Of a stretch of DNA of 4,830 nucleotides, positions 1 through 4,830 are shown piece after piece. Positions within the stretch are counted from its first letter, which is position 1; the number at the start of each line of letters is the position of its first letter. The notes beneath the pieces are model-generated. The model was not told the DNA's origin, did no database searches, and worked only from the letters and a program-made list of their open reading frames with translations. Source of the stretch: a virus (Duplodnaviria; Heunggongvirae; Uroviricota; Caudoviricetes); the IMG/VR virus record IMGVR_UViG_2576861193_000005, one strand, 5' to 3'. A program made the position numbers and the translations under genes.

Positions 1-51
1 ACCGCCGGTATCAGCACCCCGCTGACATCCACCATTCTGGAGTTTTACTGA
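1..51 (+). CDS. 3' end of an upstream gene (16 codons, ...TAGISTPLTSTILEFY*), probably terminase large subunit (gpP-like) by P2 gene order; truncated by the window edge
   Basis: Frame 1 is open from base 1 to TGA at 49-51. That stop shares base 51 with the ATG of the portal gene, matching the P2 P/Q overlap as I recall it. No catalytic motif is visible in 16 residues, so identity rests on synteny only. Confidence 0.4.
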   Translation, partial: TAGISTPLTSTILEFY

Positions 52-1107
52 TGAGTAAGAAAAAAGGGAAAACACCGCGACCTGCGGCAAAAACAATCAC
101 CGCCAGCGCCCCGAAAATGGAAGCATTCACCTTTGGCGAGCCGGTGCCGGTACTCGACCGCCGTGACATTCTGGATTACGTCGAGTGCATCAGTAACGGC
201 AGATGGTATGAGCCACCAGTCAGCTTTACCGGTCTGGCAAAAAGCCTGCGTGCTGCCGTGCATCACAGCTCACCGATTTACGTCAAACGTAATATTCTGG
301 CCTCGCAATATTCTGGCTTCAACGTTTATCCCGCATCCGTGGCTTTCGCAACAGGATTTCAGCCGCTTTGTGCTGGATTTTCTGGTGTTCGGTAATGCGT
401 TTCTGGAAAAGCGTTACAGCACCACCGGTAAGGTCATCAGACTGGAAACCTCACCGGCAAAATATACCCGCCGTGGTGTGGAAGAGGATGTTTACTGGTG
501 GGTGCCGTCCTTCAACGAGCCGACAGCCTTCGCACCCGGCTCCGTGTTTCACCTGCTGGAGCCGGATATTAATCAGGAGCTGTACGGCCTGCCGGAATAT
601 CTCAGCGCCCTTAACTCTGCCTGGCTGAATGAGTCGGCCACGCTGTTCCGCCGCAAGTATTACGAAAATGGCGCCGGCGCTCATGCCGGATACATCATGT
701 ACGTCACCGATGCCGTGCAGGATCGCAACGATATCGAAATGCTTCGCGAAAACATGGTTAAGTCGAAAGGCCGCAATAACTTTAAAAATCTGTTTCTCTA
801 TGCCCCACAGGGGAAAGCCGACGGCATTAAAATTATCCCGCTCAGTGAAGTGGCAACGAAGGACGATTTTTTTAATATCAAAAAAGCCAGCGCCGCTGAC
901 CTGCTGGACGCGCATCGCATCCCCTTTCAGTTGATGGGCGGCAAGCCGGAGAACGTCGGGTCACTGGGAGATATTGAGAAAGTGGCAAAGGTCTTTGTCC
1001 GCAATGAGCTAATCCCGTTACAGGACAGGATTCGGGAAATAAACGGCTGGCTCGGTCAGGAGGTCATCCGCTTTAAAAACTACTCACTGGACACTGACAA
1101 CGGCTGA
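51..1107 (+). pseudogene. Q: P2 gpQ-like portal protein gene, disrupted by a +1 frameshift (16-bp insertion near 291-306)
   Basis: ORF 51..395 (frame 3) gives MSKKKGKTPRP...PIYVKRNILAS then junk to a stop at 393-395. ORF 133..1107 (frame 1) is junk until ~298, then RNILASTFIPHPWLSQQDFSRFVLDFLVFGNAFLEKRYS... to a stop at 1105-1107. Both frames encode RNILAS because aatattctggc occurs at 291-301 and again at 307-317. Removing 16 bp joins the frames into a ~346-aa protein, the size and sequence I recall for P2 portal gpQ (344 aa). Confidence 0.8.
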
Positions 1108-1112
1108 ACATC

Positions 1113-1134
1113 GCCGCCTGCGGGCGGCTTTTTT
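1113..1134 (+). terminator. Rho-independent terminator after the portal gene
   Basis: GC stem gccgcc (1113-1118), loop tgcg, ggcggc (1123-1128), then tttttt (1129-1134), starting 6 nt after the Q stop codon. Confidence 0.7.
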
Positions 1135-1295: not shown

Positions 1296-1312
1296 CGCCC
1301 GCTTCATGGGGT

Positions 1313-1338
1313 GGTTTTAATGCACGGTTTTAATGCAA
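1313..1338. repeat. Two tandem copies of a 13-bp direct repeat (ggttttaatgcac / ggttttaatgcaa) next to cos, followed by a partial third copy (aatgcac, to 1346)
   Basis: Direct reading: 1313-1325 and 1326-1338 differ only at the last base. The repeat lies 18-43 bp from the cos 19-mer. Function unknown. Confidence 0.8.
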
Positions 1339-1397
1339 CAATGCACCTTCTCTAAAACAGGCAGGATAAACTATGAACGATAAAAATCCCCAACAGC

Positions 1398-1421
1398 CAG
1401 TGCATGCAAATACATGCACTG
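1398..1421 (-). terminator. Perfect 9-bp inverted repeat (cagtgcatg / catgcactg, 6-nt spacer) just downstream of the cargo gene stop; possible transcript-end hairpin
   Basis: On the minus-strand RNA the hairpin begins ~19 nt after the TAG stop (1440-1442). A U-run (auuuuuau) follows only after ~11 nt, so it is not a textbook intrinsic terminator. Confidence 0.3.
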
Positions 1422-1439
1422 GTATGCAAATTATAAGCC

Positions 1440-3791
1440 TTAAAGTTCTGTATATATTAGGCGTAGCATATCCTGCGCATAACTTTTCATATCTTCATCA
1501 GTCCATTCACGGATAACGTGCATAGGCTCATTGAGTGCAGTTCTAAACCCATGAATTCTTCTGGCCGTCTCCTCTTCCAAAATACCATCTTCAGCCAGTC
1601 GATTAATACACACAGAAAAATCCGTTCTATCATTTAAGTTGCAGTCTGTCAGTTGTTTGCGATAACGAGAACGGAATTCTGATTCAAGATATGGCCTTAA
1701 AGATAGTATTATTGTCTTATCAGTATCCACACCATTTATAAAATCAACAATCCTCTCATAGGATCTCTCATGGTCTGAAGCTATTAATTGCTCTACCTTC
1801 AGCGGTTCAAAATTAGAACCGTCTTGACCTTGTTTGATCTGAAGAATTCTATCCAAATTAAATTTTTGAGATGTCTTTGCTGCCATTCCTTTATAGTGTG
1901 TAGTAATAAACATCTGTTTTACATAAGGCTGTAATTCATACAACTTCTGCAAAATACAAGATATTCTTTCCTCATCAAAACTTGTTACAGGATCATCCAT
2001 AATAAGAATAGCTTTTGATTTCTCATCATTAGGTAACAAGTAAATTTTAGAAAGAAAGATGCACAAAGCCAAAGCTCGGCGATCTGACTCACTAAACAAA
2101 CAATTAAGTTTGTTTTTTCCAACTGACTTCCCATTAAATGAAACGTCAAGTTCATAAACAATTTTTGTACCCTGCCTGTTTATTTTTTTATTTATAGAAA
2201 ATTTACTAGATCCAACAGAACAGAACAGAGAATTAATGTGCTCAAAATATTTGTTTAAAAATTGCTCCTGGCATTCCTCTAATGTTTTCTTCTTCTCATT
2301 ATAGTTTTTTTCCCTAATATCTATTTCTTTTTTCAGTTCAAGATATTCTCGACAATCTGGCTCAAGCAATAATCTTTTTTTATTAGATTCCCACTGCTCA
2401 AGATCTTTTTGATAGATTCCCAGTAATACATCTAATTTGGTGGAATTGATACTTTCTTTATACTTCACCAACTCATTATTGAGCTGATTAATAATGCTAT
2501 TGTATGATTCCAATTTGCCATGAATTTCATGCTCAAATTGTAGAAGAGACGAAAAATCAAACCCCTTCATTTCGTTGTATACAGCTAATTCTTTCTCATC
2601 ATATATACACTCCAGTGATTGCTGAGCCTTAAGTAGATCTTGGTTAAATGTCAATATATCATTTCTTACTTGATTATAAATAGCACAACATGACTCAAAC
2701 CTTCCATTATTACTTAATTCATTTTTTATCTCATTCTCTAAATACTGTGACAAAACATCAATGTTTTTGCTATGTACATCATCAATTACATTTAATGAGA
2801 TAAATGAAAAATCAAGCCGCCTTATTTCTTTTAATTCTTTTTTTGTACTTTCAATAAAGCGCATAAATGACTCATCAAATGAATCCTTATAAGCACTAAT
2901 CAGCTCTTTTGATTCTCCTGATATACTCTGACCGCAAAACGGACATATTTCTGTGGCCATACCAAGCCCATTTGAGATCCATCCATTAAAATGATCGTGA
3001 GCCTTTATTCTCTCTTTATGTCGCTCTAATATAGAAAGTGCATCGTCATGAATTGTAGCCATTCCAGAAGAAAGACATTTATTAACCCTAATTGAAATAT
3101 CTTTCAACTTTGGTGTACAGTTAATTAAATTAAACAACGGCCTTGCTTTAATATATTTGACGGCTGTTTTCTTCTTTTCAACTTCTTGTATTGACTTAAT
3201 AAGCTCATTTATTTTTGAGTCAACGCAATCATAATCTGTTATGACAGGCTCACTATTAGCATACTCATCAACGTTATCAATTTGGTGTGATTGAATTAAA
3301 TCTTTTTTACTTCTTAACGAACCTCTTAAACTTCTTAATTCTGCATTCTCCTTTTCCAGAGCTTCAAAAGCAGCAACATTGTCTTCACCCAAAATAAATG
3401 CAGTAACACATTCAGAGTTTTCTCGATTAGATACTGTACCTGCCATTACATTTCTATGAACAAAACTCTGATCAAAGATATATAATTTAGAATCTGGTGG
3501 TGGTAATCCTGACCATTTATCTACATAAAATGAAACAACTCTATTTGAACTCCCCTCTGTGAATTGTAAATCAATCTTTGGAGTTACTTCACCATCTCCC
3601 TCCAGAATAGTCTTTCTGTTAACAACCAATTCAGGAGTATTCGTTGATAAAGAATAAAAGATGTCACAAAGAGTACTTTTACCATGTCTATTTTCACCGT
3701 AGATAACATTCATGTTATTAAACTCATAAGAGCTGGAGCGAGCTTTAATATAGTTACCTACGCCCTCTATTAATTTAATCCTCTTTAACAT
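1440..3791 (-). CDS. 783-aa PrrC/RloC-type (AAA_13-like) ABC ATPase with a long coiled-coil insert carrying CxxC, plus a C-terminal domain of unknown function; candidate single-gene anti-phage/abortive-infection protein (RloC-like)
   Basis: Uninterrupted 2352-nt ORF with ATG at 3789-3791, TAG at 1440-1442, and an AAGGA Shine-Dalgarno ~7 nt upstream. Motifs: Walker A GENRHGKST (aa 32-40, nt 3672-3698), Q-loop-like IFDQSF (aa 105-110), CPFC (aa 283-286, nt 2934-2945), signature-like SESDRR (aa 567-572, nt 2076-2093), Walker B/D-loop AILIMDDPVTSFD (aa 594-606), H-loop FITTHY (aa 628-633). Very AT-rich relative to both flanks. Confidence 0.85.
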   Translation of the reverse strand: MLKRIKLIEGVGNYIKARSSSYEFNNMNVIYGENRHGKSTLCDIFYSLSTNTPELVVNRKTILEGDGEVTPKIDLQFTEGSSNRVVSFYVDKWSGLPPPDSKLYIFDQSFVHRNVMAGTVSNRENSECVTAFILGEDNVAAFEALEKENAELRSLRGSLRSKKDLIQSHQIDNVDEYANSEPVITDYDCVDSKINELIKSIQEVEKKKTAVKYIKARPLFNLINCTPKLKDISIRVNKCLSSGMATIHDDALSILERHKERIKAHDHFNGWISNGLGMATEICPFCGQSISGESKELISAYKDSFDESFMRFIESTKKELKEIRRLDFSFISLNVIDDVHSKNIDVLSQYLENEIKNELSNNGRFESCCAIYNQVRNDILTFNQDLLKAQQSLECIYDEKELAVYNEMKGFDFSSLLQFEHEIHGKLESYNSIINQLNNELVKYKESINSTKLDVLLGIYQKDLEQWESNKKRLLLEPDCREYLELKKEIDIREKNYNEKKKTLEECQEQFLNKYFEHINSLFCSVGSSKFSINKKINRQGTKIVYELDVSFNGKSVGKNKLNCLFSESDRRALALCIFLSKIYLLPNDEKSKAILIMDDPVTSFDEERISCILQKLYELQPYVKQMFITTHYKGMAAKTSQKFNLDRILQIKQGQDGSNFEPLKVEQLIASDHERSYERIVDFINGVDTDKTIILSLRPYLESEFRSRYRKQLTDCNLNDRTDFSVCINRLAEDGILEEETARRIHGFRTALNEPMHVIREWTDEDMKSYAQDMLRLIYTEL

Positions 3792-3853
3792 TCTTTTTCC
3801 TTAATTAATTGTTAAGTTTCAATTACAACCAACACAATAAACTTAAGAAAATC

Positions 3854-3882
3854 AATATAATGCACAACAACAAAACTCACAA
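3854..3882 (-). promoter_or_regulatory. Candidate sigma70 promoter for the cargo gene (-35 TTGTGA, 17-nt spacer, -10 TATATT on the minus strand)
   Basis: On the + strand, tcacaa (3877-3882) and aatata (3854-3859) are 17 nt apart. The predicted start near 3846 gives a ~55-nt leader. AT-rich DNA yields many such matches, so this is tentative. Confidence 0.3.
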
Positions 3883-4015
3883 TACCTTACACGCTCGTTA
3901 CCTACTGCAAACTTATCTTGCAATACTAATAATCAAGTTTGAAATCATAATATCACCACATGAAATTGCCATATCGCAGAGGCTCCTTACTCGACAACTA
4001 AAATGTTTATACTCC

Positions 4016-4038
4016 AAAAAGTAAGTTTCTTACTTTTT
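4016..4038. terminator. Perfect 10-bp inverted repeat (aaaaagtaag ttt cttacttttt) between the GC-rich upstream gene and the cargo gene; possible weak bidirectional terminator
   Basis: The hairpin lies 20-42 nt downstream of the upstream gene's TGA (4058-4060). The stem is AU-rich and the U-run forms part of the stem, so predicted stability is low. Confidence 0.3.
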
Positions 4039-4057
4039 AACCGCATTAATTTCTACA

Positions 4058-4830
4058 TCACCTAAAACCTATCCACTCATCAGCGACCGGATACGTGAAT
4101 TGTTTCCCGTCATAATTTACAGTCGCGCCACGCGCCAGCGCCTCAAGCTCCCATCGCTGCGGCCTGATACCGTTCTGAGCAAGGTCAACGCGGATACGGG
4201 TGATTTGCATTCTTTCCGACCGGGTCAGTCTGGCCGATGGTGCAATTTCATGTAGTTTTAACGGGCTTCCGTTTCTTTGCTGACGGTTTGGTCTTCTCAG
4301 GCCGTGTTTTAATGCGCTTCTGAGCGCCCTCACAACCTCCGGGTCATTCCATTCGATAACACCGTCATCAACCAGATTAAGCACTGCTGCGGCGTGCTCA
4401 GAAGGTGTGGGAGCCGGTAACGAAGTATCACCGCCGGTGAGCTTTCCACAGTTATTGACAGGACTCCGAGGCGCGGCGATGCCGCTTTTTAAAGTCAAAG
4501 GCTCAACGACCGGCACTTTCGGAACAATGCGCCAGTCCGTCGTTCTGGTGATATGAATATGACGCGCGCCGAGATGCGGCGCGTAAATGCCGACCACTCT
4601 CTCGACTTCTTCCTCGTACTCGTTAACGTCATCCGACGGGCTACGGGCGACCCTGACAGTCTGACAATCGCGCGGGACATTTGCCCCGCCCTGCGCGCTG
4701 ATATACAACGCAAAATCACCACTGTCTGCAGCGGCGCGTGCAGCCTCGACGCGTTCATCAAACTCATCAGCAATGCTGACGCCGCGAGGCAATTTGCGTA
4801 GTTCACGGTAAGCCCCCATTGTCGGCAGGC
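4058..4830 (-). CDS. 3' portion (at least 257 codons) of a GC-rich prophage core gene running off the window; by P2 gene order possibly replication initiation protein gpA, identity unverified
   Basis: ORF 4058..4819 with TGA at 4058-4060. The frame stays open upstream of the Met at 4819 to the window edge and no Shine-Dalgarno precedes that ATG (upstream reads gcctgccgaca), so the true start is probably beyond the window. GC-rich like the Q side. I do not recognise a diagnostic motif. Confidence 0.6.
   Translation of the reverse strand, partial: LPTMGAYRELRKLPRGVSIADEFDERVEAARAAADSGDFALYISAQGGANVPRDCQTVRVARSPSDDVNEYEEEVERVVGIYAPHLGARHIHITRTTDWRIVPKVPVVEPLTLKSGIAAPRSPVNNCGKLTGGDTSLPAPTPSEHAAAVLNLVDDGVIEWNDPEVVRALRSALKHGLRRPNRQQRNGSPLKLHEIAPSARLTRSERMQITRIRVDLAQNGIRPQRWELEALARGATVNYDGKQFTYPVADEWIGFR

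Follow-up and report, generated by a model that had tools for sequence, protein, structure and literature searches.

We describe a stretch of 4,830 nucleotides from the IMG/VR virus record IMGVR_UViG_2576861193_000005 (the window, by which the whole of this stretch is meant) and, in particular, the single large gene that it carries between cos and the replication gene A of a P2-like Escherichia coli prophage. The order of elements in the window is portal gene Q, cos, an AT-rich island and the 3' part of A. The only long open reading frame (ORF) of the island lies on the minus strand at positions 1440-3791 and encodes a protein of 783 amino acids, in which an ATP-binding cassette (ABC) ATPase, a zinc hook and a HEPN domain are combined. 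We call it the cargo gene. Its product matches the Pfam family AAA_13 and the PADLOC family PDC-S06. It is not an orphan but an RloC-type protein, a point overlooked by the initial annotation of this DNA.

Both flanks of the island align at 94-97% identity to P2 (NC_001895) and to P2-like phages with different cargo. The flank homology breaks off at 1324/1325 and returns at 4063-4073 (at 4255 in the case of pro483). The GC content is 0.54 in the left flank (1-1324), 0.33 in the island (1326-4062) and 0.56 in the right flank (4063-4830), and from the limits of flank homology together with composition the variable, AT-rich DNA (33% GC) was placed at about 1325-4062. The initial annotation had recognized the P2-like hotspot with its anchors (portal Q and cos on the left, a GC-rich core gene on the right) and an AT-rich island with one minus-strand gene. 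All of this holds, the core gene being A (phrog_91), but the dimensions of the island need correction: conservation extends for another 30 bp past cos, so that the variable part begins at about 1325 and not at 1296, and the island measures 2.74 kb instead of 2.6 kb. In P2 itself the same interval is occupied by orf91, tin and old, and in other P2-like relatives by DUF4238, by DUF4209, by retron Ec48 with a second reverse transcriptase, by Fic, or by cytolethal distending toxin (cdt) genes. Rousset et al. (2022, PMC9122126) describe the Q/cos-A interval of P2-like phages as a hotspot for anti-phage systems, and the island is accessory cargo at this hotspot.

In RefSeq the cargo gene, named "AAA family ATPase", is the sole coding sequence between the portal gene and A, and eight contigs encoding the identical protein have no gene call between A and the cargo gene. 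The cargo gene is co-oriented with A and begins 266 bp downstream of it, whereas transcription of old and tin in P2 comes from the cos side. A second allele occupies the same hotspot in E. coli O25:H4 strain 18044 (1616-3967, corresponding to 1440-3791 of the window), with 83% identity in protein and about 86% in DNA; we refer to it as the 86% allele. A Shine-Dalgarno sequence, AAGGA (3798-3802, minus strand), is located 6 nt 5' of the ATG and is identical in this second allele. The initial annotation further assigned the gene a putative promoter of its own, for which there is one candidate of the sigma-70 type, TTGTGA-17-TATATT (3854-3882, minus strand, read from 3882 to 3854), with 9 of 12 matches to consensus and with both hexamers kept in the 86% allele.

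The hairpins that had been noticed on both sides of the gene are indeed there, each with 10 perfect pairs. The terminator-like one (1397-1422, minus strand, -22 kcal/mol, z -3.6) stands 18 nt 3' of the cargo stop codon, and 9 of its 10 pairs are retained in the 86% allele; with a T run that begins about 10 nt past the stem, it departs from the textbook form of a terminator. The AT-rich one (4016-4038, minus strand, -11.5 kcal/mol, z -2.9), 20 nt 3' of the stop codon of A, lies within the island and not in the conserved flank, and it is absent from the 86% allele. Two further ORFs were considered as genes. The plus-strand ORF 3809-4024 (71 amino acids, TTG start), located in the spacer between A and the cargo gene, was ruled out by 1-bp indels between the two alleles, and the 47-amino-acid ORF 1373-1516 was judged unlikely solely for its overlap with the 3' end of the cargo gene. 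Scanning the window against Rfam and for tRNAs gave no match.

Architecture of the cargo protein

The protein is composed of an ABC ATPase head that is split by a zinc-hook helical insert, as in Rad50, and of a HEPN-fold domain at its C-terminus. All coordinates in this paragraph refer to the minus strand. The N-terminal half of the head (amino acids 1-122, 3426-3791) contains Walker A as GENRHGKST (3672-3698, with K38). The helical insert of the coiled-coil type (amino acids 123-525, 2217-3425) carries the zinc hook CPFC (2934-2945, C283 and C286). The C-terminal half of the head (amino acids 526-645, 1857-2216) comprises the signature FSESD (2082-2096), Walker B as ILIMDD (1992-2009), D606 of the D-loop and the H-loop TTH (1896-1904). 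The last part, a linker and the HEPN-fold domain (amino acids 646-783, 1443-1856), holds RPYLE (1683-1697, R699 and E703) and RTALNEPMH (1518-1544, R750, N754 and H758).

The full-length model predicted by AlphaFold (mean predicted local distance difference test score, pLDDT, of 84) displays the split ABC head and a helical insert of about 400 residues, with helices spanning 122-524 in the model's own numbering, which runs one below the residue numbers used here. Its best matches in the PDB are Rad50, SMC heads and LmuB of Lamassu, and a whole-protein search of solved structures returned RecF-type ATPase motif matches only. Residues 645-783, modelled separately (pLDDT 86), form a helical bundle, and the fold of this C-terminal domain matches generic HEPN toxins and mRNA RNases.

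Conservation was followed in two sets of sequences. K38, C283, C286, D599, D600, H632, R699, E703 and H758 do not vary among 32 database homologues, nor do they in a second set of 35 sequences, which consists of the query and 34 homologues (22-41% identity) drawn from species-representative genomes and not from the protein-cluster database. In the second set N754 is retained in 33 sequences and R750 in only 27. The elements that are invariant or nearly so can thus be written as G37-K38-S-T, C283-P-F-C286, S567-E-S-D570, D599-D600, D606, H632, R699-x3-E703 and R750-x3-N754-x3-H758.

Family membership

The match to AAA_13 (E 9e-34) covers residues 12-634. A PADLOC search with the island cargo yielded a full-length match to PDC-S06 (model PDLC04895, E 2.7e-154, residues 1-783 against positions 1-780 of a 784-position profile), and twelve PDC-S06 sub-models match. 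No family of PHROGs was matched by the cargo protein. An entry for exactly this protein is publicly available under the name "AAA family ATPase [Escherichia coli]". Full-length homologues with 35-40% identity are found in Vibrio, Shewanella, Aliikangiella and Zhongshania, and seven relatives at 37-40% identity bear in IMG the name "wobble nucleotide-excising tRNase", which is the name of RloC.

As a comparator from the same hotspot we used a canonical RloC-like protein, the 742-amino-acid ORF of Enterobacter phage ENT4, which is 47% identical to the fifth system of the P2 hotspot in the catalogue of Rousset et al. Because this RloC-like ENT4 protein also falls in PDC-S06 (PDLC04886), PDC-S06 is in effect the RloC-like/AAA_13 group. 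The cargo protein belongs to this RloC-like (PDC-S06/AAA_13) group and probably works like RloC.

Other ATPase-based systems were considered as well. PADLOC reports weaker, partial matches to LmuB (E 6e-20) and AriA (E 6e-6), and LmuB is also among the structural matches, so the protein might be imagined as an ATPase of the Lamassu or PARIS kind left without its partner effector, and the system as incomplete or inactive. We consider this very improbable. Neither LmuA nor LmuC nor AriB is encoded in the island or in the neighbourhoods of relatives, and the HEPN effector is part of the same polypeptide as the ATPase. The full-length architecture is, moreover, kept in at least 269 clusters at the 50% identity level (E <= 1e-30 among 1.84 billion representatives), nearly all of them with about 780 amino acids and aligned end to end, and dN/dS (the ratio of nonsynonymous to synonymous substitution rates) between the two E. 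coli alleles is 0.19. Assignment to Lamassu was rejected, in spite of the partial LmuB match, for the missing partner gene, and assignment to PARIS for the weak, partial AriA match and the lack of a second gene. The earlier statement that the cargo is neither Old nor a two-gene system proved correct: no TOPRIM match was obtained for it in Pfam or PADLOC, and no neighbouring gene accompanies it.

Distribution and genomic context

The island is present in 23 of 5,426 complete E. coli genomes, one copy in each and always on the chromosome. Twelve of these copies are at least 99% identical and the other 11 about 86% identical. Every examined E. coli copy sits between the portal gene and A. Divergence between the two alleles is uneven along the protein: the second coiled-coil arm is least conserved (74%) and the C-terminal half of the ATPase head most conserved (94%).

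In one genome (GCA_002520745.1, NOQQ01000001.1, 3500-8000) a P2 remnant of about 4.5 kb is situated between yegS/yegR and a U32 peptidase gene. Nothing is left in it but a stub of A, the cargo gene with its protein 100% identical, cos, Q and ogr; here the gene has survived its prophage. Because the two alleles are under purifying selection and because this remnant keeps only the region of this gene, the data suggest that the host benefits from it.

Outside E. coli, relatives with 36-39% identity reside on plasmids of Yersinia and Psychrobacter, and a scan of one genome per species detected relatives in Gammaproteobacteria, Desulfobacterota, Bacteroidota, Patescibacteria, Firmicutes and other phyla. 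Neighbours were counted at 71 full-length loci, the family gene being placed by tblastn coordinates. Type I restriction-modification (R-M) genes (HsdM, HsdS, HsdR) adjoin it at 20 of the loci, C5 methylases at five and type III Mod/Res at three; Fic, DUF2130 and reverse transcriptase genes were met three times each. At single loci there are nSTAND/Avs-like and helicase genes, a Shedu-type gene, or a relaxase with a coupling protein, which resembles a conjugative element. No partner gene is common to all relatives at these loci. In a metagenome-assembled genome of Ignavibacteriales (4447-12738), a 29% identical relative is found between an Eco57I-type R-M fusion protein and RhuM/Fic and DUF2130 genes, a neighbourhood of the kind that was described for RloC-like ABC-HEPN proteins in 2013.

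This pattern of contexts matches the reports on RloC-like ABC-HEPN proteins (PMC3710099) and argues against a housekeeping SMC role. A chromosomal SMC, RecN or SbcC protein, the identity that had been named at the outset as fatal to the idea of cargo, was rejected on its occurrence in only 23 of 5,426 E. coli genomes and on mobile contexts that vary by locus: R-M loci, defence islands, plasmids and the conjugative-element-like locus.

The gene could also be thought to serve the prophage itself, either as a toxin-like addiction or stabilisation module or as an SMC-like factor that binds DNA ends or cos in P2 replication or packaging. Such a role would agree with its position next to cos and its orientation, shared with the nearby A gene, and with a head resembling Rad50 and SbcC, which bind DNA ends; about a quarter of P2-like phages have non-defence cargo at this place, for example partition systems (PMC9122126). 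We nevertheless hold it to be improbable. Most P2-like phages do without the gene, which is found in 23 of the roughly 1,458 E. coli genomes with this Q-cos region, and a tblastn search of 50,697 records of isolated phages revealed no encoded match. Most relatives live outside phages, often within R-M loci, and in the remnant described above the gene persists without replication and packaging genes.

The predicted nuclease domain

RloC was defined by an ABC ATPase, a Rad50-like insert with coiled coil and zinc hook, a C-terminal anticodon nuclease and only rare linkage to R-M loci (PMC2610378). GkaRloC (804 amino acids) has its hook at C291, and its triad R692, E696 and H737 is equivalent to R320, E324 and H356 of PrrC (PMC2610378). 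Mutagenesis of PrrC has shown that R349 and N352 are essential as well, which extends the second motif to R-x2-N-x3-H (PMC3025547). Anantharaman et al. placed the PrrC and RloC nucleases among the HEPN domains (PMC3710099). RloC from G. kaustophilus and A. baylyi cleaves tRNA with excision of the wobble nucleotide, and its nuclease is switched on by a DNA-dependent ATPase (PMC3458546, PMC3874168); these two proteins are the only ones for which such biochemistry is known. Among these traits, the cargo protein presents the ABC motifs, the hook insert between Walker A and the signature, and an Arg-Glu-His triad in the predicted nuclease domain. Judging by the motifs, its Arg-x3-Glu and Asn-x3-His would be the residues that are catalytic in PrrC and RloC.

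The ENT4 protein matches AAA_13 from end to end, is assigned by PADLOC to PrrC in addition to PDC-S06, and carries R-N-x2-E followed by R-x2-N-x3-H. When aligned with it, the cargo-family profile scores a probability of 98.2% (E 4e-14) and brings the zinc hook and R-x3-E into register.

The gene might, on the other hand, serve defence with an unchanged sensor but use its HEPN domain as a general RNase that cuts mRNA or rRNA, in the manner of RnlA, LsoA or Csm6, and not anticodon loops. The generic HEPN toxins and mRNA RNases that its fold recalls would fit such an activity, as would the C-terminal domain's lack of a sequence match to the PrrC/RloC nuclease and its spacing R-x7-H in place of R-x6-H of PrrC. 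We regard a general RNase as possible but unlikely, since R-x3-E and N-x3-H constitute a pair of motifs specific for PrrC and RloC and show little or no variation, the alignment of the full-length profile with the RloC-like protein extends through R-x3-E, and the remaining architecture is that of RloC.

Genes and features flanking the island

The left flank begins with the final bases of the terminase gene P, ahead of portal Q, and represents the end of the P2-type late region. Portal gene Q (51-1107, plus strand; phrog_68, E 6e-139; TIGR01540) is followed by the intrinsic terminator tQ (1113-1128, plus strand, -14.4 kcal/mol), formed by GCCGCCTGCGGGCGGC and a subsequent T run and annotated in P2 NC_001895. 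The 19-nt cohesive end cos, GTGCTTTCCCCGCCTCGCC, spans 1277-1295; it is the reverse complement of P2 cosL/cosR, GGCGAGGCGGGGAAAGCAC, and aligns to P2 33575-33593. On the right, the 3' part of the replication gene A, which encodes a nicking endonuclease, extends over 4058-4830 on the minus strand (phrog_91, E 1e-79, aligned to annotated A genes), and its reading frame leaves the window.

In phage pro147 (record 1413-5786) cargo is present on both sides of cos. A 56-bp cos-like match is located in the middle of its Q-A interval (3625-3680), flanked by retron Ec48 towards Q and by a second reverse transcriptase towards A.

Three small imperfect tandem duplications occur in the window only and are absent from all relatives, including the eight contigs with identical cargo. 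The first comprises 16 bp at about 290-305 (TAATATTCTGGCCTCG before CAATATTCTGGCTTCA), the second 6 bp at about 669-674 (TGGCGC before CGGCGC) and the third 13 bp at 1312-1324 (GGTTTTAATGCA twice). The 16-bp insertion shifts the frame of portal Q, which is therefore read as two ORFs, 51-395 and 133-1107, instead of one ORF of 344 amino acids. Either this frameshift is real and the prophage is defective and unable to make its portal, or it is an artefact of assembly.

Proposed mode of action

We propose, with a probability of roughly 60%, that the cargo gene is a single-gene abortive-infection system of the RloC type that acts by cleavage of RNA, probably tRNA. The steps of the mechanism are inferred by analogy with RloC of G. 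kaustophilus and A. baylyi. In the lysogen, the protein would be made from its own promoter and kept silent as a dimer held together by the zinc hook. Infection would then produce a signal at the ATPase head; for RloC, the known signal is linear or broken DNA together with ATP hydrolysis. The signal at the head would activate the HEPN RNase, possibly through ATP-driven engagement of the heads that pairs two HEPN domains into one active site, as can be expected from HEPN enzymes generally. Presumed cleavage of tRNA anticodon loops would stop translation, and the spread of the phage would fail.

Several observations weigh against this RloC-type proposal, and most of them concern the nuclease domain. 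The AAA_13 match of the cargo protein ends at profile position 571 of 713, before that domain, and PADLOC finds no PrrC match, unlike for the ENT4 protein. When the profile of the C-terminal domain alone was compared with the C-terminal domain of ENT4 in hhalign, the result was not significant (probability 0.3%), and Pfam on this domain alone returned only a sub-threshold DUF4145 match (E 0.061). The spacing R-x7-H is one residue beyond the canonical R-x4-6-H of HEPN domains, to which R-x6-H of PrrC conforms; R750 itself is not retained throughout the family (27 of the 35 sequences), and R699 is followed by Pro at a position where PrrC has an essential Asn. Expression is a further weak point: the promoter is a consensus match only, and promoter-like matches in the region do not exceed chance (11 against 12.6 +/- 3.5 expected), so that the putative promoter of the initial annotation stands as one candidate, with both hexamers conserved in the two alleles. 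Finally, the trigger of RloC during infection is unproven (PMC3874168), and in the literature searched there is no plaque-assay protection for any RloC-type gene and no test of PDC-S06.

Because its HEPN domain is without detectable sequence similarity to PrrC/RloC and shows the R-x7-H spacing, the 780-amino-acid subfamily may even be functionally distinct from RloC, with a different RNA target or another cue, such as the linear ends of incoming phage DNA. This is a tentative idea that we think rather doubtful. If it were true, the subfamily would represent a separate single-gene abortive-infection system distributed over P2-like prophages, plasmids and R-M loci.

Relation to earlier records

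RloC-like genes at this position of P2 have already been recorded three times. Table S1 of the 2008 RloC paper (Davidov & Kaufmann, PMC2610378) lists YP_852004 of E. coli APEC O1, a protein of 738 amino acids with the flanks "phage replication initiation" and "capsid". The HEPN survey of 2013 (PMC3710099) described prophage ABC-HEPN proteins of the type APECO1_4465 and proposed that they exclude other phages independently of R-M. In 2022, Table S5B of Rousset et al. (PMC9122126) gave AAA_13 "RloC-like" as the fifth most common system of the P2 hotspot, and AAA_13 is absent from the table of systems tested in the same work. PADLOC already models the cargo subfamily, and in a preprint of 2025 a PDC-S06 ATPase of E. 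coli is named as a probable true positive. New in the present analysis are the diverged nuclease domain and the description of its sequence and genomic context.

The practical value of this finding is modest: systems of this kind, their location in P2 and the entry in the catalogue were known before. Should the gene prove protective, it would add a tested single-gene system to the catalogue of the P2 hotspot and provide a convenient E. coli model for nucleases of the RloC type. It would also be the first direct proof of RloC-type protection in the literature searched, for an antiviral role that has been proposed since 2008.

Comparison with known systems

Of the characterized proteins, GkaRloC offers the closest parallel. 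The two agree in size (783 amino acids in the cargo, 804 in GkaRloC), in the ABC head, in a CxxC hook near residue 285-290 and in the C-terminal Arg-x3-Glu...His, whose positions nearly coincide (699/703/758 in the cargo, 692/696/737 in GkaRloC). Like RloC, the cargo gene stands alone, and some of its relatives are linked to R-M loci. What sets it apart is the C-terminal domain, which is without detectable sequence similarity to the RloC/PrrC nuclease, AAA_13 covering only the ATPase and coiled-coil part.

With PrrC the cargo protein shares the succession of an N-terminal ABC ATPase domain and a HEPN nuclease with R-x3-E and N-x3-H, and presumably the logic of abortive infection. PrrC is, however, a protein of about 400 amino acids without the coiled-coil/zinc-hook insert and is always located within the type Ic hsd locus that silences it, whereas the cargo protein has 783 amino acids with an insert of about 400 residues, and its gene is neighboured by Q and A. 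PDC-S06, to which the cargo corresponds over its full length, is itself a computational candidate.

APEC O1 YP_852004/APECO1_4465 and the fifth system of Rousset et al. resemble the cargo in their place at the A-Q/cos hotspot of P2-like prophages and in the order of domains. They are, in contrast, about 740 amino acids long, match AAA_13 from end to end, are recognized by PADLOC as PrrC and have the motifs R-N-x2-E and R-x2-N-x3-H; the cargo protein belongs to a different lineage, with BLAST similarity to them at the level of motifs only. Rad50/SbcC and LmuB are the closest structural matches for the head and coiled coil, and the zinc hook is as in Rad50, yet the cargo protein differs from all of them by the absence of an Mre11/SbcD or LmuA/LmuC partner, by the fused domain of RNase type and by its mobile, patchy contexts.

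P2 itself keeps Old and Tin at the very same locus. Old, an ATPase with a TOPRIM nuclease, is transcribed from the cos side, unlike the cargo gene, which is transcribed from the A side and encodes a protein without TOPRIM. Apart from these differences, the cargo gene presumably has in common with old and tin a lysogenic conversion by which other phages are excluded.

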